Shown here piece after piece: positions 32,390 through 56,523 of a DNA stretch of 64,000 bases. The stretch comes from a virus, in the IMG/VR virus record IMGVR_UViG_3300046786_000331, positions 1-64,000 of that record. One strand, given 5' to 3'. A model generated the notes under the pieces. That model did not search any database. It was not told where the DNA came from and was given only the letters and a program-made list of their open reading frames with translations. The stretch's first letter is position 1. Each line of letters starts with the position of its first letter. A program made the translations under genes and the position numbers.

Positions 32390-32744
32390 TGCACAAACTA
32401 TAAACATCGAGAATCCTCGATTCTATAATGAGTTGCATGGTGGAAATACTCTTCACCATATTCTAAACGTTTCTTTTGGTTGGTTCAAGACTCTTGACAA
32501 AGAACAGAAAGAAGCGTATCATAGTTCTATAGTTGTCGCTTTAGAAGAAGCACAGCCGGGACAGTTTGCTCGCTGGTATAAGAATGATGCCAGTGGTATC
32601 GTTCGTGTTGCATGGCAAGAGCCAAGGAACGGATCTATATGTAAACGATTGCATATCTCTCTTATTGCGTACAGCACAGTTAAGGAGGTACAATCTACCG
32701 CTTGCTTTAACGAAGTAGATAATAGGTGGAGCTGGTACTTATAA
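32301..32744 (+). CDS. secreted protein with 17-kDa surface-antigen-like domain (start uncertain)
   Basis: ALEEAQPGQ...W...SG...C...AC...W pattern. Confidence 0.5.
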   Translation: MEEKLSIFKLGVVKFLITLAMLLVTNTSINAQTINIENPRFYNELHGGNTLHHILNVSFGWFKTLDKEQKEAYHSSIVVALEEAQPGQFARWYKNDASGIVRVAWQEPRNGSICKRLHISLIAYSTVKEVQSTACFNEVDNRWSWYL

Positions 32745-32754
32745 ATAATAGCTT

Positions 32755-34248
32755 ATGAAGATTACATTAAGTGATAAAATAATTGCCTATATGGCATTGC
32801 TCAGCGGATTAACAATATCCGCTGTTGCCGTTTGGTATAGCGTTGCTGGACTAGTGTCTATCTTTGCGGCTGCTGTTACTCCTATTATTGTTATGGGTGT
32901 GGCACTAGAGATTAGTAAACTAATTGCTACAGTATGGTTAAAACTGAATTGGCAAAGAGCCCCGTTCTTTATTAAAGCATATATGACTGCGGCAGTTGCA
33001 GTCTTAATGGTTATTACATCTATGGGCATCTTTGGCTTCTTGTCAAAGGCACACAGTGATCAAAGTCTAGTATCGGGTGATGTACAAAGTAGAATTGCTG
33101 TCTACGATGAAAAGATTAAGACAGCAAAGGAAAACATTGATGCAAATCGCAAAGCACTTAAACAAATGGATGAGGCTGTGGATCAAAGCATGGCACGTTC
33201 AACTTCAGAAACGGGGGCCGACAAAGCGGTCGCTATCCGTAGGGGACAGGCGAAAGAACGTGCTAGATTACAGAATGAAATCGCAGCCGAACAGAAAACA
33301 ATTAATAAACTTTCTGAAGAAAGGGCACCTATCGCGGCTGAAGTAAGAAAGGTTGAAGCAGAAGTCGGGCCAATCAAATACATTGCTGCCTTTGTCTATG
33401 GTGACAACCCAGATGCTAACGTACTAGAAAAAGCAGTGACATGGGTAATCATTATTATTGTGTCAGTGTTCGACCCACTAGCAGTTATCTTATTGTTAGC
33501 AAGTCAATACAGCTTCCAATGGTTCCGTAAAGCTCGTGAGGAAGAGGAAGATGACCTCAAAGAAGTTAAAGAGTGGTTTGAACAAGGCAAGGAACGTGCT
33601 AGGCAGTTAGATGCAGAGGCTGCGAATACAGCTAAGTTTGAAGACATTGAAGATCCTATAGTTGACGAAATTGGAAAACCTACTCCTGAGCCGGAAATCG
33701 ATTACAGTAAACATGCTTACCTAAATCCTGAAAAATCATTCTGGCATAAACCAGAAGGTTGGGAGGAAGTTCCTCCACAGGTTTATAAACCAGAGCCTGT
33801 GCAAGAACCAGTAGTTGAAGAACCTGTAGTTGAAGTTGTTATTGAAGATGACGACGAAGATGAGATCGATGAAAGCGTAGAAATGAAAGCCGCAAAGGCA
33901 GCATGGAAACATGATCATCCAACCGATAGTCTAAAGCGTCACAGAAAATTATTTGAACAAGGTTTGATTTCTACTTTGCCTTGGGAATCTTATCTTTCTG
34001 CACAGCCAGACTACACAGATAAAGAAGCAGCCGAAGAAGCACTTAAATGGGCTCAAGAACAAATTGCTGAACGTCCAGGCGATTATCTAACTCCATCAGA
34101 CGATCCTAAAAAAAAGGTAACGACTTGGATAGAGCGTGATGGCGATAAACAAATTACAAAAAGTCTTGAAGACGAAGGCTATGTTCAAAATGCAGAACAA
34201 AGTTCTAGTACAATTTGGAATCGTGTTAAGAAAGCAAAAGGCGATTAA
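32755..34248 (+). CDS. membrane-anchored coiled-coil protein with acidic tail
   Basis: 3 N-terminal TMs, long coiled coil, FDPLAVILL TM, E/P-rich tail. Confidence 0.7.
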   Translation: MKITLSDKIIAYMALLSGLTISAVAVWYSVAGLVSIFAAAVTPIIVMGVALEISKLIATVWLKLNWQRAPFFIKAYMTAAVAVLMVITSMGIFGFLSKAHSDQSLVSGDVQSRIAVYDEKIKTAKENIDANRKALKQMDEAVDQSMARSTSETGADKAVAIRRGQAKERARLQNEIAAEQKTINKLSEERAPIAAEVRKVEAEVGPIKYIAAFVYGDNPDANVLEKAVTWVIIIIVSVFDPLAVILLLASQYSFQWFRKAREEEEDDLKEVKEWFEQGKERARQLDAEAANTAKFEDIEDPIVDEIGKPTPEPEIDYSKHAYLNPEKSFWHKPEGWEEVPPQVYKPEPVQEPVVEEPVVEVVIEDDDEDEIDESVEMKAAKAAWKHDHPTDSLKRHRKLFEQGLISTLPWESYLSAQPDYTDKEAAEEALKWAQEQIAERPGDYLTPSDDPKKKVTTWIERDGDKQITKSLEDEGYVQNAEQSSSTIWNRVKKAKGD

Positions 34249-35827: not shown

Positions 35828-37711
35828 ATGTCTAAGATCATCGGTATTGACCTCGGCACCACCAATTCATGCGTGGCTGTTATCGAGAATGGAATTCCCA
35901 AAGTTATTGAAAACAGCGAAGGTGCAAGAACAACACCTAGTATCGTTGCCTACGCAACAGATGAAATTCTTGTTGGCGCAAGTGCTAAACGACAAGCTGT
36001 TACCAATCCAAAAAATACTATCTATGCTGCCAAGCGTTTGATCGGTCGTAAGTTCAGCGAAAAAGCTGTACAGAAAGATATCGACTTGATGCCTTACGAT
36101 ATCATGGAAGCAAAGAACGGAGATGCATGGGTTCGCGCACAGGGCAAAGAACTAGCACCTCCACAAATTAGCGCAGAAGTTCTTCGTAAGATGAAGAAGA
36201 CTGCCGAGGACTATTTAGGACATGAAGTTACTCAAGCCGTTATCACAGTTCCTGCGTACTTTAACGACAGCCAAAGACAAGCAACTAAGGATGCTGGAAA
36301 AATCGCAGGCTTGGAAGTACTCCGTATTATTAACGAGCCTACTGCGGCAGCTCTTAGTTATGGCGTTGATAAAACTGATAAAGCTGACAGGAAGATTGCT
36401 GTTTACGACCTTGGTGGCGGTACTTTCGACGTATCGATCATTGAAATCGCGAATGTCGAAGGCGACAAACAAATCGAGGTATTGAGTACAAACGGCGATA
36501 CATTCCTAGGCGGTGAAGACTTTGATCAACGCATTATGGATTTCTTAGTTGAAGAATTCCGCAAGGATCAAGGTGTTGACTTAACTAAAGATGTTCTTGC
36601 TCTACAGCGTTTGAAAGAGGCTGCTGAAAAGGCTAAGATTGAATTGTCTAGCTCTGCACAAACAGATGTTAACTTACCTTACATCACAGCAGATGCAAGT
36701 GGTCCTAAGCACATGAACGTTAAAATTACTCGTAGCAAACTAGAACAACTAGTTGACGAGCTAATTGAACGCAGTCTTGCTCCATGCCGAACAGCTATGC
36801 AAGATGCAGGTGTTAGTGCTTCAGACATCGACGAAGTTATTCTTGTTGGTGGTATGACACGTATGCCTAAGGTACAAGAAGCAGTTGAAAAACTCTTCGG
36901 CAAAGCACCACGTAAAGACGTTAACCCAGACGAAGCAGTTGCCGTTGGTGCTGCTATTCAAGGTGATGTTCTTGGTGGTGGACGTAAAGACGTTCTATTG
37001 CTAGACGTTACTCCGTTGTCCGTTGGTATTGAAACACTTGGCGGTGTTATGAGTAAGTTGGTTCAGAAGAATACAACTATTCCTACTAAGGCTAGTCAGA
37101 CATTCTCTACAGCAGAAGACAATCAACCGGCTGTAACTATCAAAGCCTATCAAGGCGAACGTGAACTTGTTCAATACAACAAGTTGTTAGGTGAATTCAA
37201 TCTAGAAGGAATTCAACCACAACGCCGTGGACAACCACAGATTGAAGTTACCTTTGATATTGATGCTAACGGTATCATGCACGTTAGTGCCAAAGATAAA
37301 ACAACTGGTAAGGAAAACAAAATCACTATTAAGAGTGACAGTGGACTTACTAAAGAAGAAATTGATCGCATGGTGCAAGATGCTGAAGCCAACGCAGAAG
37401 CAGATCAAAAAGCACGTACCTTGATTGAAACTCGTAACCAAGCAGAAGCAATGGTTCACGAAATCAAGAAAGATAAAGAAGAGCTGAAAGACAAATTGAC
37501 TGAGACAGAAATTAGTGATGCAGACGCTGCTATTAAAGAAGTGGAAGACGCTGGCAATAATGTTGATGCAATCAAAGCAGCCATGGAAAAATTAAACACT
37601 GTAGCAGTTTCATTCGCACAGAAGAAGCAATTAAACGAACAGGCACAATCGCCTGACGTTGCACAGGATGATAATGTAGTCGACGCTACCTTTACAGAGA
37701 CGAAGGCTTAA
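35828..37711 (+). CDS. dnaK: Hsp70 chaperone DnaK
   Basis: [30 protein letters not shown] motifs. Confidence 0.98.
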
Positions 37712-37751
37712 TTATCTAAACCCAGGGGTACCTTATAGGGCCCCTCATTGT

Positions 37752-37769
37752 TCTTACTTTATAAGGAGA
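37752..37769 (+). promoter_or_regulatory. ROSE-like RNA thermometer candidate (hsp20)
   Basis: TCTTACTTTATAAGGAGA, identical to the dnaK leader. Confidence 0.55.
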
Positions 37770-37774
37770 CTATT

Positions 37775-38209
37775 ATGAACAATCAATTATCTAGAATGGA
37801 CGCTCTCAACCGAGCACTTATTGGCTTTGATGCCATGTTCGATCAACTTGATCGTAAGTTTGCCAATTCTGTGCAAACAAACTATCCGCCACACAATCAA
37901 ATTAAAACTGGTGAAAATGAATATCTAATTCAATTAGCAGTTACTGGCTTTTCAAAAGCTGAAGTCACTGTTCAAGTTGAAGGTAACATTCTTACCATTA
38001 AAGGCGAGAGCATTACAACAGAGTATGCTCAGGAGCAGTACCTGCATCGAGGCCTAGCTACACGCGACTTCGTTAAGGAGTTTCCACTAGCTGAGCATAT
38101 CGAAGTTAAAGGTGCTGAAATGGAGAACGGAATGTTAAATATTTGCTTAGTTCGAAATATTCCCGAGTCAGCAAAACCTAAAGTGATTGACATTTTAGAA
38201 GTTAAGTAA
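37775..38209 (+). CDS. small heat shock protein (Hsp20/IbpA-like)
   Basis: NYPPHN, YLHRGLATRDF, ENGML motifs. Confidence 0.92.
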   Translation: MNNQLSRMDALNRALIGFDAMFDQLDRKFANSVQTNYPPHNQIKTGENEYLIQLAVTGFSKAEVTVQVEGNILTIKGESITTEYAQEQYLHRGLATRDFVKEFPLAEHIEVKGAEMENGMLNICLVRNIPESAKPKVIDILEVK

Positions 38210-38258
38210 TATAATAAAGGGGAAGGAAACTTCCCCTTATCAACAAACTGGAGCAAAA

Positions 38259-38558
38259 ATGTCCACAGACGTACAATTCGACGAAAAAATTAAAGTTTCA
38301 CTTCAGCCACCAAAGATGTGGAAAGTGGTATTCCTCAACGACGATCAAACGCCAATGGAGTTTGTCATGGAGTTGTTGACTGAAATTTTTAAACATACAG
38401 AATCTGATGCTAAAAATATCACTATGGAAATTCATAATGAAGGTAGCGCAGTTGCTGGAGTTTACACACACGAAATCGCAGAACAGCGAGGTATCGAAAG
38501 TACACACCTAGCTCGTTCCAACGGATTTCCTTTACAGATTACTATTGAACAAGAGTGA
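38259..38558 (+). CDS. clpS: ClpS N-end-rule adaptor
   Basis: WKVVFLNDDQTPMEFV, IHNEG, GFPL motifs. Confidence 0.93.
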   Translation: MSTDVQFDEKIKVSLQPPKMWKVVFLNDDQTPMEFVMELLTEIFKHTESDAKNITMEIHNEGSAVAGVYTHEIAEQRGIESTHLARSNGFPLQITIEQE

Positions 38559-38818
38559 TAACATTCGACGAAGTGCGATTGATTAAGTATCAACGCACTA
38601 ACGCACAACGATTTGGGTATTGGGTTCATTTTAGAGATCAACGCCCAAAACAACAAGCGTTGGGAATTGCAGGCAAAAAGTCTATAGTTAAGTTTGTAGA
38701 AACTAGTCTCGGTCCACTAGGCGGTAAATGGCAGTATCAGAGATTTAATCAAGTTGACTATATTATAAAAATGGACAACGAAGCAGATCTCTTATTTTTA
38801 ATCATGAGAATGAAGTAA
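38555..38818 (+). CDS. small protein, dispersed member of the F-x-L-[KR]-W family
   Basis: Ends DNEADLLFLIMRMK. Confidence 0.5.
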   Translation: MITFDEVRLIKYQRTNAQRFGYWVHFRDQRPKQQALGIAGKKSIVKFVETSLGPLGGKWQYQRFNQVDYIIKMDNEADLLFLIMRMK

Positions 38819-38834
38819 AGTTAAATACACCACT

Positions 38835-39380
38835 ATGAGCCTAAAAGATATTACCAAAGACCTCCACCACGAGGCAGAAACAACCAAGTTCGCTAAGATG
38901 CTACTCAGTGGCAAGATTGGCAAAGAAGACTACAGAAACTATCTGTACAATCTAATGGCAGTATACGATCCAATCGAATGGTATTGCCAGCGTCAGGGTT
39001 TCCTTGTCACAATGCCAGACTTACCTCGTCTAAAATCAATCTATGCAGACTTCATGGAACTAGATGACGGATCTTACTGTTATCTAACTCCAGCAACACT
39101 TGAATACCAAGCATACTTACACAAACTAGGTAACGATGAACAACGTAAACACCTTGTTAAAGCGCATCTATACTGCCGCCATATGGGCGACTTATTCGGT
39201 GGCCAAATCATTAAGAAGCAGGTAGCACATATCAGCAGTGGTAAGTTCTACGACTTTGAAAATGCAGATGCTATGAAGATGGCTATTCGTGTAACACTTA
39301 CAGACGATCTCGGAGACGAAGCTCGTGTAGCATTTGAATATGCTATCAAAATGATGCGAGATTTGTATCATGGAGAGTAA
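38835..39380 (+). CDS. heme oxygenase
   Basis: SLKDITKDLHHEAE; AHLYCRHMGDLFGGQII. Confidence 0.92.
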   Translation: MSLKDITKDLHHEAETTKFAKMLLSGKIGKEDYRNYLYNLMAVYDPIEWYCQRQGFLVTMPDLPRLKSIYADFMELDDGSYCYLTPATLEYQAYLHKLGNDEQRKHLVKAHLYCRHMGDLFGGQIIKKQVAHISSGKFYDFENADAMKMAIRVTLTDDLGDEARVAFEYAIKMMRDLYHGE

Positions 39381-49374: not shown

Positions 49375-49466
49375 CGATTCGCTCCCGGGATTATGTACTA
49401 CTATTTAACCATTTGACAAATTTTTAAACTGGTGCTATAATATACACATATTACTCAGAGGGTGTT

Positions 49467-50333
49467 ATGAAGATTAAACTAGTGTCAGACTTACATTTGG
49501 AATTTAGCGATTACAATGTACGTAATGACGAGAACTGCGATGTGTTGATTCTAAGCGGCGACATTATGGTTGCTGTAGATATGTACGACCATCCAGAACC
49601 CGAAGTTCCATATCCACCTGAAATTATTAAAACTCTGGGTAGTCGCCAAGTTACAGCGCAGCGTTTTCGAGACTTTCTCAAACGTTGTAGCTTCCAATTT
49701 CCTCACGTTGTCTACGTAGCAGGTAATCACGAATTTTATCACGGTAAGTGGCATCAGACTCTAGATATCCTGCGTGAAGAATGTAACAAGCTAGGTAACG
49801 TTTATTTCTTAGAACAAGAATCTAAGAAGATTGATGATGTTACATTTATCGGCGGTACACTATGGACAAACATGAATAAGTTTGATCCATTGACTCTACA
49901 CGCTGTTCGAGACATGATGAACGACTATCGAATGATTCGTAAAGAGTTTGAAGGCTACACACTATTAAAACCTTCCGATACCTGCATCCGTCACAGGAAC
50001 ATGTTGGACTACATTAAAACTATTGTAGCAGAACGAGGCGAAGAAAAGTTTGTTGTAGTTGGGCATCACAGTCCTAGTTTTCAAAGTTGCCATCCACAGT
50101 ATGCACACGATAGTTTGATGAACGGTGCTTATCACAGTGACTTGAGCGAGTTTATTTTAGATCGTCCACAGATTAAACTATGGACGCACGGACACACTCA
50201 TCATGCGTTTGATTACATGATAGGTGAAACAAGAGTTGTATGTAATCCTAGGGGCTACCAGTCAACACGCGGTAACGGTGATAGCTGGGGCGAAGACACA
50301 GATTGGAATCCTAACTTAGTATTGGAAGTATAA
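49467..50333 (+). CDS. calcineurin-like metallophosphoesterase
   Basis: SDLHLE, GDI, GNHE, HHSP, HGHTH, NPRGY; consensus sigma70 promoter at 49413. Confidence 0.92.
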   Translation: MKIKLVSDLHLEFSDYNVRNDENCDVLILSGDIMVAVDMYDHPEPEVPYPPEIIKTLGSRQVTAQRFRDFLKRCSFQFPHVVYVAGNHEFYHGKWHQTLDILREECNKLGNVYFLEQESKKIDDVTFIGGTLWTNMNKFDPLTLHAVRDMMNDYRMIRKEFEGYTLLKPSDTCIRHRNMLDYIKTIVAERGEEKFVVVGHHSPSFQSCHPQYAHDSLMNGAYHSDLSEFILDRPQIKLWTHGHTHHAFDYMIGETRVVCNPRGYQSTRGNGDSWGEDTDWNPNLVLEV

Positions 50334-50659
50334 TGGAAATGACAAAACAAGAATTCATGAATGAACTTCGTGGAATTCAACGTATCGTTATTAACGACTG
50401 CTACGGCGGATTTGGTTTAAGCGAACGTGCTTTTAGAGAGTACAAACAATTAGCAGGAATCACAGATCCTGAATTTTACGATCGAAACATTCCTCGCGAT
50501 GATCCGTATCTTGTTAAGGTCGTAAGAGAGTTAGGCATGACTGCAAATGGTGCCCATGCCAATCTTAAGATTGTTGAAGTTCCGGGTGATGTCGAATGGG
50601 ACATTGCAGAATATGACGGTGTGGAATGGGTTGCTGAAAAGCATCGTACATGGTCATGA
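50333..50659 (+). CDS. hypothetical phage protein
   Basis: IVINDCYGGFGLS...IAEYDGVEWV. Confidence 0.65.
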   Translation: MEMTKQEFMNELRGIQRIVINDCYGGFGLSERAFREYKQLAGITDPEFYDRNIPRDDPYLVKVVRELGMTANGAHANLKIVEVPGDVEWDIAEYDGVEWVAEKHRTWS

Positions 50660-53600
50660 AAGTAGAACCTACAAGCTATCCCGGTTGGTCGGGACATCCT
50701 ACATATCTAGTTCGTACATCCAAAGACTACCAAGAAGTCTGTCTTTGGATGTACAAGAATCAAGTAGAACATTTCTTGTTAAGTTCTGGCAGTCCTGGCT
50801 ACACATTTCAAGTCCGTGATAAGAAAGAATGGTTTGCATTAAAATGGCTCTAACAGCAGTAAAAGGCGGATGGGTGGCTATGCGTAAAACTATTGTCAAT
50901 CACTGGCGCTTTGAAAACGGCATTGATCCTGTTAATCCAGGAAGCCAATGGCCCAGTATTCCTCCTCGTGGTTGGTACTGTTGGGTGTATCCTGAAGACG
51001 ACAACGAGTACGAACAGTGGATGTCTAAGATGTGTCCTAGTGCTGAAATAACGCATCGTTTCAACAGTGGTGATCCTATGTACACCACATTCATCAAAGA
51101 CGATGCAGAAGCTGTATTATTTCAACTAAGGTGGATGTAATGAAACCTACTAAGTTAACTATAAAGCAATGGAACGTTCTTAAAAAGCAATTAGCTACTG
51201 ATTACAGTACCAGTGTTGTTTTGATTCGTTCTAAGATGAGAGAACGCCTTGGGTTTACTACTCGAGAACATTCAACCTACACGGATCAATACGGTACAAA
51301 AATAGTCATCTATCTAGATTGGTTTGATGATGCTAAAAGAACTATGTTTATGTTAAAATACAGTGAGTACTTTGATGCAAGCAAGAACTAAAGTTGGATC
51401 AATGCAAGAAATAATGTCAAGTCGCTCTAGAGCGACTTTTCGTTATCGTGTAAATTTTGAATCTATATCAACAGAAAATATCAGAGATATGATACAATGG
51501 TGCAAAGAAAATTGCAAGGATCTGTGGCGAGCGAACAACAACTACTCAAGTTATTTTCAGTTCGCTGACGATTATGATGCTACAATGTTTATGCTGCGAT
51601 GGGGCGGCGCATCTGGAAACACACTAGCATGACTGGATATAAATTGCACGACTATCAAAAAAACCTGATTAATGGTTTCGCAAAAGGCGAGATCACCTTA
51701 ATCACTGCTGGTCGACAAACTGGTAAGAGCACATATTATCAATATGCACAGCAGTGGGCTGAAATGATGACTCCTCAGGCACCTTTTAGAAAAATGTCAC
51801 AAACACTAGTTGACGGACTGCCTTGGTACACTATTAAGTGTAATACTACGGTAGGAGAATTTATACGCAATCAACCTGGGCAAGGCACACGGTGGTATGA
51901 ACACATTGATACAAATTGGTATGTTCATAAAACCATGTTTGATATCTCAGAAGAGTTGTACATTCAAGTTGGATTAAAGTTTGATAATGTATGAAAGTAG
52001 ATCGTAGAACATTACCTAAGTCAGTTCGAGGTGCAGAGCGTCGCGGATATCACATTGTTGAACTGCCATTGTCAAATCTCAACGATAGACACACAAGTTG
52101 GCTTGGAGTTAACATATGGTGTACACGTCAAACAAAAGGGCATTTTGTTAGCAGGTTCCACCCTGATTACAAATTTGCATTTCAAAACGAACAGGATGCT
52201 GTTTGGTTTCGATTGAAATGGGTAGTATGAAACGACTTATTCACAACAACATGACTGTTAGTGAGCAGTTTAATTTGATGCAGCAATTTCGAGATATTAC
52301 CGATCAAGCATGGCGTGTTCATGCTAAAACTGGTGAGTACGAAAATGCTTATCTTAAACGAGACTTTATTGAAGAACGATTTGGCATTCGTTGCACTGTA
52401 CAGAATACCGACAAACTATATCCCAATGTTGGAAGACTTCTTGAGCCTCGTGTTGTAGACGAAAAGAAATGTTTATTTTATTTGATTAGTATCCAATGAA
52501 AATCGTTCGTAAAATTGATAGCCGCAATGCCCTATATGGCAGATATATGTATCAGGTAAAACCTGGCGCAATTGTCGGTGGTGCATCCGAACCTCGCAAG
52601 TGGTGTCGCGAAAAGTGGGGACCTCCTATTCAATGGGTTGAACATAAAATCAGTGAAACTAGTTGGCAGTGCTGGAATGAAAAGAACCCACGATGGACAG
52701 AAGTTAAACGTCCGGGATTCAGTTCTCCTTTCATTTACATTCGTGACGAAGCCGATGCTGTAATGTTTAGTCTTGTTTGGTCCGGTCAATGACAAGTACA
52801 AAGTTTTGGTGTAAGCATTTTGTAGCACTACCACATCTTGAAGTAGGTGTGCGTCGAGAAGCTGCTGAATGGGCTTTAACAAAATTTGGTACACAACAAG
52901 TTGACATATTTCATAATAACCCAGTAGGTCGGCCGGGCTTTTACTTCGAACACGAAAAAGATGCTATACTGTTCGCACTGAGATGGTCATGAGTAATCCT
53001 TACAAATATCGTGTAGAATTTCGTCGAACAGGTGATTGGTACGACAACGAAGGTATGTGGTACCGAATCTCTACTTGGTGTAATAAAACTTTTGGAGCCG
53101 GTAATTGGGATTACTTCTATGACGGATTTGTTTTTGAACACGAGCGCGATTTTATGTTGTTTAAATTAAAGTGGTGCTAACATGATGAGAATAAATCAAA
53201 CCTCCAGACCCATCGAATATAAAACTTGGGTAATAGGTATCAAAGAAGTTACCGAAAATCATTTAAAGTTTCTCAAAGGTTACGATATAACTGCTCGAGC
53301 AGTTATAGACGAGCACTTGATAACAGCTAGTAACGGGCGTCAATATCGTTACGGTGGCGACGGAAAAGCAGAATTTGAAACTACTAACAAAGATCAAGAA
53401 GCTATGTTAAGATTGCTCTACGGCAATAAAATTATGCTTCTAATGGTTGATGTAGTATTACCTAACAGCTTTCAACAATGTGTTTTAGAACATATAAATT
53501 TTAAATGACCCGATACTCGATAAACCAATACGAAGAAAATTTCCAGAAATGGGAAGCTGATAGAAAACGTAAGCGCAATGAGTATTGGGATATGATACGC

Positions 53601-53782
53601 AAAGCTCACAAAGACTACGAAGCTAACGAGTGCTATGGACACAAAGATAATTCGTTCGGTGGATTCCGTTATTGGGTTGAACGTCGATGGGGATTGGCAA
53701 TAGAACTCGTTGACGGAAAAATTAGCGCAGAGTATAATATAGTTGACGAATCAAAATTTTTATTATTTCAAATGAAGTACGC

Positions 53783-54160
53783 ATGAATCTTCGAACACTA
53801 CGGCGTAAGATTCTCATTAGAGAATACGATTACAAAAAAGTTAGAGCCCAGGCATTTACGCCAGTGGGCATTTCTGCATTATATGATCGTGCTAGTTTTA
53901 CACCAGTATCGCTTAGTGATATTGAAAAACATCAGATGCTGGAGATTTTAAAAGGCAAGATTAAAACTACCTGGAAAGATTTAGAACAGCCTGCACTTGC
54001 ATTATACAATGTAAAAGATTATTTGTATGATGTTCGTTATTATGATTGGCGAGTAACTTTTGATGATGAAGGGTATCTATGCGTACAGGCAAGAAAAAAT
54101 ACTCCGCTGAGCCGTATTGGATGGGCGGTGTTCGAAAAAGACCTATCGGCGAGAATATGA
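53783..54160 (+). CDS. hypothetical protein
   Basis: Coupled ORF lacking the family motif. Confidence 0.5.
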   Translation: MNLRTLRRKILIREYDYKKVRAQAFTPVGISALYDRASFTPVSLSDIEKHQMLEILKGKIKTTWKDLEQPALALYNVKDYLYDVRYYDWRVTFDDEGYLCVQARKNTPLSRIGWAVFEKDLSARI

Positions 54161-55120
54161 CAGCTACCGAAGTCTTAGACGAACAAACTAAACTCCAACT
54201 CGAAAAACGTATGATAGACGAGATGGTTGCCAAAGCTGCTAAAGAATTCCAGGAAGAAATGGACTTTACTATATTGGCAGATTTTTATAAAAGTTCTGGC
54301 TGGACTGAAATTGATTTTGACCCTTACCAAAGACCCGAAGCTATTAAGGCGTGGTTAACGAGTAATTGTAAGGGCCATCGTGTGAGTCGAGGTCGCCGAT
54401 TTTTATTTCAAAGACAGAGTGATGCAATTAACTTTGTACTAAGATGGACCGAATAAAAGAATACATTGTAGACAGGTGGTTAACCTGGCGTACAGGTAAG
54501 GATAAGCCCACACGAGATTGGGAAGCATGGTACGAAACAAACATTGTTTATCGTGCCGGCACTGTCTCGAACATGTTCATGCACTTTAAGCATGTCATTG
54601 TAGTTAGTCCTAACACGTTCTTTGATTTATGCGAGCCGTTTGCCTATGTACCTTGTGAAGATGCTAGACAATACTTTTGGCCACAGCGTCCAGTTACTGA
54701 GACTTGTGTTTGGCGATTTGAACGAGTTATGTGGAATCAATGGACCGAGGAATGGGACATTAACGGAATGGGTGATAGAGATAAAGTCTTTGTAGCTACA
54801 AACAATGATGCAGACGCTATAATGATAGCATTGAAGTACGGAAGTTAATATGGAATACTTTTATGGCGGTGGTGGCAGCAGTGATCCAGATTTCATTTAT
54901 CGTTTCCTAGTTAAGGAAGTTACTAATGAAATGTGGAAGTGGTGTGAGAACTATCCGTTGACTGGTCCGTTTGAACGTTGGCATATTAAAAGATATCCGC
55001 ATGAAAACGGCGAACGCACAATAGTACAAATTGAAAGCCGTAAAGCTGCATTTATGTTTAGCCTAGCATACAGTGAATACATTTTAGAAGACAAGACCTA
55101 TAGTTTCGCAAAGAGTATAT

Positions 55121-55552
55121 ATGAACCATTTAACTGATAAAGAATTGATCAATCACGTTATCAAGTTTGATACTGATCCTATTCGGTTGCGTCTTGCAAC
55201 AGCCAACGAACGGACTTCTGGAGCAATCTGGGACGATTTAGTTGATGCGGGAATGGATGAAACATACTGCACGTTTACCAGTGAATGGGGCAGTAACATG
55301 CACGTTGGACGATATATTGAACATTTGCGTGAAGAACTTACTATTCGCGATGACGAACTTATAAATCTACGCCAAGAGCTTGAAGAACAAAAAGCTCGTA
55401 CTATTGCTGATTTGATCAATGAACTTAATCAACAAATTACCACAGAACGATACATAGCAAAAGAAGCTCGTAACGAAGCAAACAAGGCTAGAGAAGAAGC
55501 AGCATCTGCTAGAGAGCAACTTAAAATGTGGAACCATTTACGAACACCATGA
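55121..55552 (+). CDS. coiled-coil hypothetical protein
   Basis: Heptad-rich C-terminal half. Confidence 0.55.
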   Translation: MNHLTDKELINHVIKFDTDPIRLRLATANERTSGAIWDDLVDAGMDETYCTFTSEWGSNMHVGRYIEHLREELTIRDDELINLRQELEEQKARTIADLINELNQQITTERYIAKEARNEANKAREEAASAREQLKMWNHLRTP

Positions 55553-56523
55553 TAGTATGGGGCAGAAGTATAGGATGGAACATTGAATTGCACGGCTATA
55601 AGAAACGCAAAATGGAATACACAATTATTGACAACGGTTGCGATTGCTATCCGTGGACAGAATGTTATGCTTGGTTACCTACTTTAACAATTACCGGTAA
55701 GCGAGTATGGAGACAAAAGATATACAAACGTAAAGTTTGGGTAGTATGGGGTACAGGTTTTCACATGGAACCAACAGTGCAATATGCTACATTTTTAGAG
55801 TTACTCGAACATGGCAATATTAAAAAAATATCCGTGGCCTAATGCCCAGGATTATACTAACCAATTAAATCAACATTTAGCAGACAGCTTCTTTAAGTAT
55901 CATAATCCTTATACTCATAAACCTGTACGTAATAAGTACAATATAATTAGAGACGGAGATGAACAACGAGTGGAAGAATGTAGAGAATTAGTCATACATG
56001 AATTTTCAATGGGAGATGTTGAAGATCCAGATTTATATGCTGCCCAACCTTTATATGAATGGGAAGAAAGTGATTTTGGACAATGGTGTATGAAGAATGC
56101 CTCAGACACTCCTACGTGGCATAGATTAGCTGACCCGGGTACGTTTGGATATCGATACCAAATTCGTGCCAAGTTTATGGGTCCTGCACTTACCGAAATT
56201 CTCCTTAGGAAAGGATAATGGGCGCACCAGTTCCAAGAATTACCGGAGGTATTCGTCGTCCACAAGTGATAGACGATCAAATCTTGGAAGCCCTCAAGGA
56301 CTATCACGTTGTAAAATTAGAATCGGATGAATTTTACAATGATAAGTTAACTTGGTGCTTAGAGCATTGCCAAAATAAATTTCGCGACTTCCGAGGCAAC
56401 AATTGCAGAGCATGGTACTTTAAAGAAGAACAGGATGCTATGATGTTTGCTATGAAATGGAGTAGTTGACAACAATCTAGTTTGATTGTATAATATACAC
56501 ATTATATACTTTGCGAGGTTGAG

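Follow-up and report, generated by a model that had tools for sequence, protein, structure and literature searches.

A tandem array of diverged paralogues of a small, phage-restricted domain in a translationally coupled operon of a gp23-type large phage

Results

We analyzed a 64,000-nucleotide stretch of DNA (the window), the first 64 kb of the 145.7-kb viral record IMGVR_UViG_3300046786_000331 (CheckV completeness 41%), and found at its positions 50650–56469 the genes for ten or more paralogues, separated by ancient divergence, of a single phage-restricted domain that spans about 60 residues and has not been described before. The paralogues are old single-copy orthologue groups under purifying selection, and their translationally coupled genes make up a single operon with a consensus sigma70 promoter at either end. 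Some subfamilies have copies of major capsid protein motifs at the N terminus, a feature new to this analysis. We favour, tentatively and with a little less than even confidence, the reading that these are early host-directed binder proteins built on a common scaffold, some of them carrying capsid-mimic peptides.

The genes lie in an unbroken chain of 22 same-strand open reading frames (ORFs) covering 49467–56469, 21 small ORFs of which span 50333–56469. A preliminary description of the window had counted about 17 paralogues. The array is real, with 10–14 diverged copies on the same strand within 5.8 kb of a gp23-type large phage, and the count was too high: ten ORFs are secure members (starting at 50650, 50829, 51363, 51991, 52496, 52777, 52983, 54079, 54850, and 56218), two are probable (54444 and 51599) and two possible (51131 and 53505), and six are unrelated. 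Pairwise phmmer comparisons, which assume no motif, linked 51363 with 56218 (E value 1.7e-6), 51991 with 54079 (5e-5) and 52983 (3.5e-4), and 52777 with 52983 (1.4e-5 to 8e-5) and 56218 (4e-4 to 9e-4). A hidden Markov model (HMM) iterated from six seed copies with an inclusion cut-off of 1e-3 recruited 50829 (4.4e-5) and then 52496 (2e-4), and placed 50650 slightly above the cut-off (2.2e-3 to 4.4e-3). When the profile was dominated by 142 outside sequences (alignment A3), its matches at E < 0.01 among the 977 ORFs of the record were array ORFs only, including 52496 (4e-5) and 54850 (8e-3), neither of which was part of the profile. Alignment with hhalign, in which the ORFs were accompanied by their orthologues, gave probabilities of 97% for 50650, 94.6% for 52496, 96.1% for 54850, and 49% for 54444. 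The E values of the four probable and possible members were 2e-4 to 4e-3, in comparison with 0.26–0.45 for five downstream control genes, and the six interspersed ORFs reached hhalign probabilities of 0.1–2.6% against the family and no HMM match below E 0.5.

A loose regular expression for the C-terminal tail matched 12 ORFs within 50547–56469 and had nine further matches across the 145.7 kb, scattered and mostly in nongenic frames. At the DNA level no repeat is evident, as had been noted, similarity being confined to the 42 nucleotides that encode the tail (67–74%). The dispersed copy proposed at 38555 is weakly supported. This ORF (38555–38818, plus strand), just after clpS, is a possible very distant relative whose membership is not established: taken together with 11 homologues it aligns colinearly with the family (hhalign probability 20%, E value 1.1e-3), and it is without the invariant W, F, and W.

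Conserved domain and predicted fold

The W–C core and the C-terminal tail motif, both pointed out in the preliminary description, hold in the column frequencies of 150 representatives of the family. The first strand reads G-W-[HY]-x-V and is followed by a helix with W (100%), C (68%), N or H, and C (57%), and the tail reads [FWY]-x-F(91%)-E-x-E-x-D(88%)-A(90%)-x-x-F(100%)-x-L(92%)-[RK](92%)-W(98%). The match stands at or near the C terminus in nearly all of the 150 best of 1,120 clusters: past the final W there is a single residue in 105 of the 150 representatives and no more than three in 134. The N-terminal extensions ahead of the domain have a median length of 21 residues and a maximum of 74 among the representatives and range from 0 to about 100 residues in the window array. 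The median isoelectric point (pI) of the members is 5.7, with a wide spread.

Two copies were modelled with AlphaFold2, and the domain is predicted to fold as a compact beta-alpha-beta-beta-alpha unit. In the model of 52983–53180 (predicted local distance difference test [pLDDT] 84), strand 9–12 is followed by helix 23–37, strands 42–45 and 48–51, and helix 54–64; in that of 54157–54456 (pLDDT 87), a helix at residues 3–46 precedes the same core. The conserved tail residues (A, F, L, and W) are mostly hydrophobic and lie in the last strand and helix at a pLDDT of about 90 in both models, and the conservation of the tail would thus be best explained by the fold, as buried-type hydrophobics within a globular domain. 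What had been described as a constant docking helix is, in both models, the last strand and helix of that domain. The preliminary description had allowed that the copies might have unrelated folds or map to a characterized domain; the two copies fold alike, no characterized domain matches, and the idea of one diversified family with constant and variable parts, encoded in an operon behind an early-type promoter, stands.

The search for known relatives covered sequence and structure. A Pfam and PHROG scan of all 20 array ORFs gave no significant match to the domain, and among the 150 representatives the recurring Pfam and PHROG matches were only PF07068 and phrog_138, on the N-terminal extensions of a few members. 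The best E value in a sequence-profile search of the PDB was 0.51; Foldseek runs of the two models against the PDB had best E values of 0.56 to 1.8, none being below 0.5; and the VIA wide fold search had best Z scores of 5.5 and 5.7, under its stated background of 7–8. In a library of predicted viral structures, the model matched uncharacterized proteins of uncultured Caudovirales phages (template-modelling score 0.6–0.78) and, weakly, one protein of Agrobacterium phage Atu_ph07, and the look-alikes proposed by a protein language model were unnamed viral clusters only. We found no description of the domain family in the literature. For the beta-beta-alpha end of the domain, an HNH or other nuclease was considered and rejected: no His, Asn, or Cys-metal pattern is conserved, the two Cys positions reaching just 57–68%.

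Two helices packed on one face of a small antiparallel sheet are also found in the RRM, KH, ACT, and DCoH folds (VIA Z 4.5–5.7), and the proteins could accordingly regulate host or phage RNAs as small RNA binders of an RRM/KH/ACT-like fold. Pes4 RRM4 aligned with a Z of 5.0 (root-mean-square deviation 2.5 over 53 residues) and KSRP KH3 with a Z of 4.7 (1.7 over 50 residues), and a large tRNA and small-RNA region lies just downstream. On the other hand, a Z of about 5 is at background level for this search, the family has three strands only, no motif in common with these folds and 2–18% identity to them, and its conserved residues are hydrophobic core positions in proteins with a median pI of 5.7. 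We consider an RNA-binding role very unlikely. The RRM itself was rejected as a candidate, as both models end with the second helix and one to three residues and have no beta4, and the first strand, G-W-[HY]-x-V, and the last, [FWY]-x-F-E-x-E, show no RNP pattern of the form [RK]-G-[FY]-[GA]-[FY].

Operon, promoters, and coupling

The sigma70-type promoter at the head of the operon (49413–49441, plus strand), which the preliminary description had reported, is present and matches the consensus at 12 of 12 positions, with TTGACA and TATAAT separated by 17 nucleotides and a TG that makes an extended −10. The second sigma70-type promoter (56466–56494, plus strand), also with 12 of 12 consensus positions, overlaps the end of the array and starts the next unit. 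The first two genes of the operon, both on the plus strand, are not members of the family: 49467–50333 encodes a calcineurin-like metallophosphoesterase (Pfam PF00149, E value 6e-11), the jumbo-phage homologues of which are annotated as Ser/Thr phosphatase family, and 50333–50659 matches phrog_16527 (E value 1.3e-25) and has an hhalign probability of 0.2% against the family. Sixteen of the 21 gene junctions have a spacing of −4, −1, or +1, and ten of them are ATGA overlaps; in the related loci, 124 of 262 family genes are tightly coupled and 96 of 262 have the ATGA overlap. Among the representatives, S, L, A, K, and G are favoured as the last residue, as might be expected if the final codon ended in A ahead of TGA and so created the ATGA overlap.

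The array contains no copy of the T4 late motif TATAAATA, which does occur elsewhere in the window, at 32740 and 35741, shortly before the ORFs that begin at 32755 and 35828. Contigs from two metatranscriptome libraries, each of a different study, match the greater part of the array with at least 99% identity, with the reservation that RNA libraries may contain DNA. The RNA-library contigs of two studies begin at 49463/49468 and at 56517/56518, positions through which DNA contigs run. These starts, 15–25 nucleotides past each −10 box, give a weak hint of transcription starts.

Coupled paralogues may also be parts of one machine, and a hetero-oligomer had been among the roles suggested in the preliminary description: the proteins would join through their three-stranded sheets into one multisubunit functional complex. 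The sheet has free edges in both models, the coupling extends to the related loci, and 5 of the top 150 representatives are natural two-domain fusions of 122–192 residues (P0140, P0156, P0163, P0182, and P0209), which suggests that separate copies may pair. While pairing gains some support from these fusions, a fixed complex is a poor fit to loci with 1–16 copies and differing sets of subfamilies and to an operon interspersed with unrelated ORFs, and we regard it as quite unlikely.

Distribution among phages and selection

An exhaustive profile search (E ≤ 1e-3, clustering at 50% identity) found 1,120 clusters, nearly all of which come from uncultured phages, and a word-indexed search found 416 proteins, none of them named, those listed being orthologues of five window paralogues with 48–100% identity. 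For the comparison of loci, 47 related viral contigs were fetched through the orthologue of 50829. All 47 have between 1 and 16 family copies on the same strand, the largest number lying in one 16-kb locus, and a 353-kb, 98%-complete relative (G002) has five copies, all within 3 kb. Outside the array of the latter, an ORF of 183 residues (69632–70183) is matched over residues 81–158 by six 50829-type members (E values 4e-4 to 1e-2) and may be a larger protein holding a copy of the domain.

Cultured phages have the family too. A profile search of five cultured jumbo phages found three copies in Pseudomonas phage vB_Pa-PAC2 and five in Agrobacterium phage Atu_ph07, and no family copy in 121Q, XaC1, and pEa_SNUABM_12. 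One of the vB_Pa-PAC2 copies is 100% identical in PA5oct (EST35_0274), the third lies near 150.7 kb in vB_Pa-PAC2, and all copies in cultured phages are annotated as hypothetical. In Atu_ph07 (MF403008.1, 196416–199830), the copies AUZ95034 and AUZ95037 share a gene string with a gene for a protein serine-threonine phosphatase, a setting reminiscent of the window operon with its metallophosphoesterase, which may be a coincidence. Among GenBank phages, megablast with the array and tblastn with two members found nothing, and the region beside the best phosphoesterase homologue, in Synechococcus phage B23, has no family member. The capsid proteins of the relatives are gp23-type, and the nearest cultured capsid sequences are those of the RaK2/121Q-type, XaC1, Erwinia, and PA5oct-type jumbo phages and of Atu_ph07, which constitute "group 2.2" of Iyer et al. 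2021 (PMC7824862).

Together, the window copies and the 262 family ORFs found in the relatives fall into 54 BLAST-linked subfamilies, 26 of them singletons, and a subfamily nearly always has one member per locus. The duplications are thus older than the split between these phages, and the gene content turns over. Orthologue groups are conserved down to 37–45% identity, and whole-gene Nei–Gojobori omega against the 47 loci is 0.15–0.47 for family genes, a rough range as dS is saturated at 1.3–2.8. A public metagenome contig, 96.6% identical, is colinear with 49400–56050 and has 223 differences (3.4%); 18 of the 20 listed differences inside family genes are at third codon positions, as are 12 of the 12 listed in the neighbouring gene 50333. 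Of the two options given in the preliminary description, that the expansion is old or fast-evolving, the one-per-locus orthologue groups bear out the first and the third-position bias speaks against the second.

Capsid-like N-terminal segments

Four of the 150 representatives match Pfam Gp23, in P0201 with residues 6–31 aligned to profile positions 9–34. Members of three related loci (L032:13462-13794, L009:4237-4602, and L035:232-618) open with a close copy of the capsid motif ...IPMIRxVMPxLxAxxIxGVQPM, which in the last of them is joined to the 50829-type subfamily; chimeras with the GVQPM segment are a finding from the relatives and not from this window. An unbiased screen compared 494 family proteins with the 223 large ORFs of the 98%-complete relative; the best-scoring target was the capsid protein (E values 2.6e-8, 2.8e-5, and 3.3e-5), and all other targets were at the noise level expected for the number of queries. 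In one phage, the small protein and its own capsid protein share 20 of 26 residues. The chimera subfamily with the capsid motif, to which proteins P0281–P0311 belong, has 37 clusters with 41–100% identity, 25 of which are flagged PF07068, and one chimera of 114 residues is annotated in its source as "Major capsid protein Gp23." Members with as little as about 42% identity still have the copied motif, which is kept as well as the scaffold core is, though the most diverged cluster, P0316, has lost it. With the 43-residue N-terminal piece as a query, nearly all GenBank phage rows listed were major capsid or gp24-type head vertex genes (E values down to 5e-7).

The copied segment aligns to residues ~95–125 of T4 gp23 (...RRAIPNLIAFDICGVQPM...). 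It would be equivalent to the 29-residue Gol peptide (residues 93–122). Like the copied segment, the Gol site is in the first quarter and the most conserved stretch of gp23 (PMC3014915). A second capsid segment (T4 residues 283–307; residues 179–206 in the relatives) resembles the N-terminal helix of the widespread subfamily of 54157–54456. The N-terminal profile of this subfamily matched, among the large ORFs of a 5,166-ORF set, only capsid proteins (E value 0.0045, the next being 2.2), and Pfam Gp23 matches two 54157-type orthologues (7.6e-4 and 5.5e-3). PF07068 has no match in the whole 145.7-kb record, and a phmmer comparison of 150 members with 52 large ORFs of the same genome gave nothing below E 0.004. 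The small proteins of the relatives match PF07068 only at positions 2–44 or 165–221 of 376 and thus carry capsid fragments rather than being capsid proteins.

A different kind of N-terminal segment is found in 51599–51994, which carries DYQ...GRQTGKST within 131 residues. Its top PHROG is terminase large subunit (E value 4.7e-4), and its residues 13–61 align without gaps to residues 53–101 of the relatives' terminase. Segments of the form [WY]Q...GRQxGKS stand ahead of the domain in at least five subfamilies (window 51599-51994, L003:3833-4309, L008:8802-9251, L017:7848-8264, and L018:1509-1976), and the 50829-type subfamily has a Walker-A segment in one relative and the capsid motif in another. 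The carriers are too short to be ATPases. A terminase origin is only weakly supported: a profile of seven carriers misses the relatives' terminase (E value 0.8) and six other carriers match no terminase PHROG, so that 51599 is best called a P-loop segment of uncertain origin. PF03237 (Terminase_6N) finds nothing in the record, and the same profile finds the 525–540-residue terminases of three relatives.

Small proteins with pieces of the capsid could be assembly helpers that attach to the capsid protein or terminase of the phage, or to the chaperones of these two, and regulate or chaperone head assembly and packaging, the capsid-like peptides acting as complementary or competing assembly interfaces. 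In line with this, two parts of the capsid protein, its N-arm region and a conserved helix, are copied in the segments, a terminase-like Walker-A segment recurs in several subfamilies, and the window shows an investment in chaperones (DnaK, Hsp20, and ClpS). Nevertheless, the operon has early-type promoters only and no late motif, the capsid-like part is absent from most members, and copy number and content vary widely though the capsid proteins of the relatives are conserved, the 98%-complete relative making do with only five copies; this explanation is, in our judgement, unlikely. The chimeras could also have arisen incidentally, through illegitimate recombination with capsid and terminase genes, in a hyperplastic region of tolerated small ORFs that has no specific function. 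The mosaic of members and unrelated ORFs and the variable gene content among relatives would agree with that. We find it extremely unlikely, given the purifying selection seen against the close relative, the conservation of the orthologue groups, and the fact that the same ~30-residue capsid segment is kept in 37 clusters and joined to different subfamilies.

Gene order in the array

All array genes are on the plus strand. The first member, 50650–50853, probably starts at 50656 in an ATGA overlap with the upstream stop. It is followed by 50829–51140, the most conserved subfamily, with one orthologue in each of the 47 related loci (37–71% identity), and by 51131–51391 (likely start 51140), a possible diverged member whose tail, ...MFMLKY, is followed by nine residues; its hhalign match covers the last helix only (E value 1.2e-3), and it also matches phrog_14383 (3e-4). 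The member 51363–51632 has orthologues in 20 loci. The probable diverged member 51599–51994, with the N-terminal Walker-A segment, likely starts at 51629; its hhalign match (3e-3) is colinear across 47 columns, and its orthologue in L032 ends ...KLTW. Then come 51991–52230, tied to 54079 and 52983 by phmmer; 52496–52792, which has an insert between the first helix and the last strands and 15 orthologous clusters with 67–90% identity; 52777–52992, with a likely start at 52789 in an ATGA overlap; and 52983–53180, a minimal member that, from its likely start at 52989, has 63 residues and is nearly the bare domain.

In the second half, 53505–53786 is a possible diverged member with the tail ...LLFQMKYA (hhalign E value 3.9e-3 across 38 columns, no HMM match), and 54157–54456, whose longest ORF starts at 54079, is the member with a 44-residue N-terminal helix. 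The probable member 54444–54848 has about 100 extra N-terminal residues and the tail ...DADAIMIALKYGS, its hhalign match (49%, E value 1.8e-4) covering the last helix only. The member 54850–55137 has a WKWCENY core and a short C-terminal extension after the tail ...AAFMFSLAY (hhalign 96%, 3.6e-9, 49 columns), and 56218–56469, the last gene of the operon, has about 50 orthologous clusters with 48–100% identity. The interspersed nonmembers are 52203–52499, 53182–53508, 53783–54160, 55121–55552, 55528–55842, and 55811–56218. One of these, 55528–55842, has a paralogue at record positions 83144–83374, ~27 kb downstream (phmmer E value 5e-5). Another, 55121–55552, differs from its counterpart in the 96.6%-identical relative by two compensating pairs of one-base indels (55360–55366 and 55471–55474), so that short stretches switch frame and the ORF is preserved.

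Upstream of the operon, a block of chaperone and pigment genes at 35828–40053 has Pfam matches to Hsp70/DnaK (E value 8e-257), Hsp20, ClpS, heme oxygenase, and ferredoxin-dependent bilin reductase. The region 40429–47838 has curli-type secretion genes (CsgF-like and CsgG, the latter with an E value of 9e-51) and a CHASE2-adenylate/guanylate cyclase protein, with large, repetitive, secreted-looking ORFs between the curli-type genes and the cyclase gene.

Discussion

In the host-directed reading that we favour, the domain would be a stable scaffold, possibly also a module through which copies pair, and each paralogue would bind a different partner early in infection via its variable surface or N-terminal peptide. 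With a different partner for each paralogue, the set would amount to a toolkit of small binders for host takeover or counter-defence. In some subfamilies, the N-terminal peptide would be a molecular mimic of the major capsid protein, shown before the capsid protein is made. The anti-defence and adaptor roles named in the preliminary description would be plausible.

Several points weigh against this reading. Early timing is deduced from the promoter consensus and the weak hints of contig ends, not from time-resolved data, the RNA-library contigs may contain DNA, and the PA5oct homologues EST35_0274 and EST35_0275 are outside the early block gp34–gp105 defined by the authors (PMC7318152). Most members are without a recognizable mimic, and the capsid-like helix of the window's own 54157–54456 is weak when taken alone (local score 32). 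No known homologue bears on function, the fold searches yield only generic two-layer alpha/beta matches (Z ≤ 5.7), and we found no tie of the family to a defence system, the PADLOC library not having been searched with it.

Capsid and terminase proteins are reported targets of bacterial sensors, and short sequence motifs are said to be what Lit and CapRel recognize in the capsid protein (PMC13581612). In that light, preemptive mimicry would be an attractive reading of the chimeras. Taken to its end, the scaffold would serve for display: early decoys of the Gol-equivalent N-arm motif, of the capsid helix, and perhaps of the P-loop would occupy host factors or sensors without activating them. 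EF-Tu with Lit-type proteases, and CapRel-type or other motif sensors, would be occupied, and abortive infection blunted before the late proteins appear. We hold this particular version to be distinctly improbable. The likeness of the copied segment to the Gol region is one of sequence; our literature search found no phage decoy of capsid or terminase and no counter-defence by self-mimicry.

Expansions of small domains are known from jumbo phages, the Zn-ribbon of Bacillus phage G having ~35 copies (Iyer et al. 2021, PMC7824862). As in the array, these are diverged paralogues in tandem on the same strand in early-looking regions of gp23-type ("group 2") giant phages; the array differs in its domain, with a motif of its own, a predicted beta-alpha-beta-beta-alpha fold, a strictly C-terminal placement and, in some members, N-terminal peptides that appear to be capsid-derived. 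Genes 37–60 of SPO1 and the small ORFs of the T4 early region are host-takeover modules of large virulent phages. They, too, are dense operons of coupled small genes behind strong host-type promoters, but they consist mostly of unrelated proteins, whereas the operon described here is dominated by one domain family.

To our knowledge, the early genes of giant phages are for the most part without an assigned function. With 1,120 clusters, confinement to phages and up to 16 copies in a locus, the family accounts for a sizeable piece of this unassigned early biology. As some of its carriers are laboratory phages, with Pseudomonas aeruginosa PAO1 as the host for PA5oct-type phages and Agrobacterium C58 as the host for Atu_ph07, the proposals made here are testable now. 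If true, the early display of capsid and terminase fragments would be a new class of counter-defence and would account for small genes that now go under the wrong label of "Major capsid protein Gp23" in annotation pipelines.

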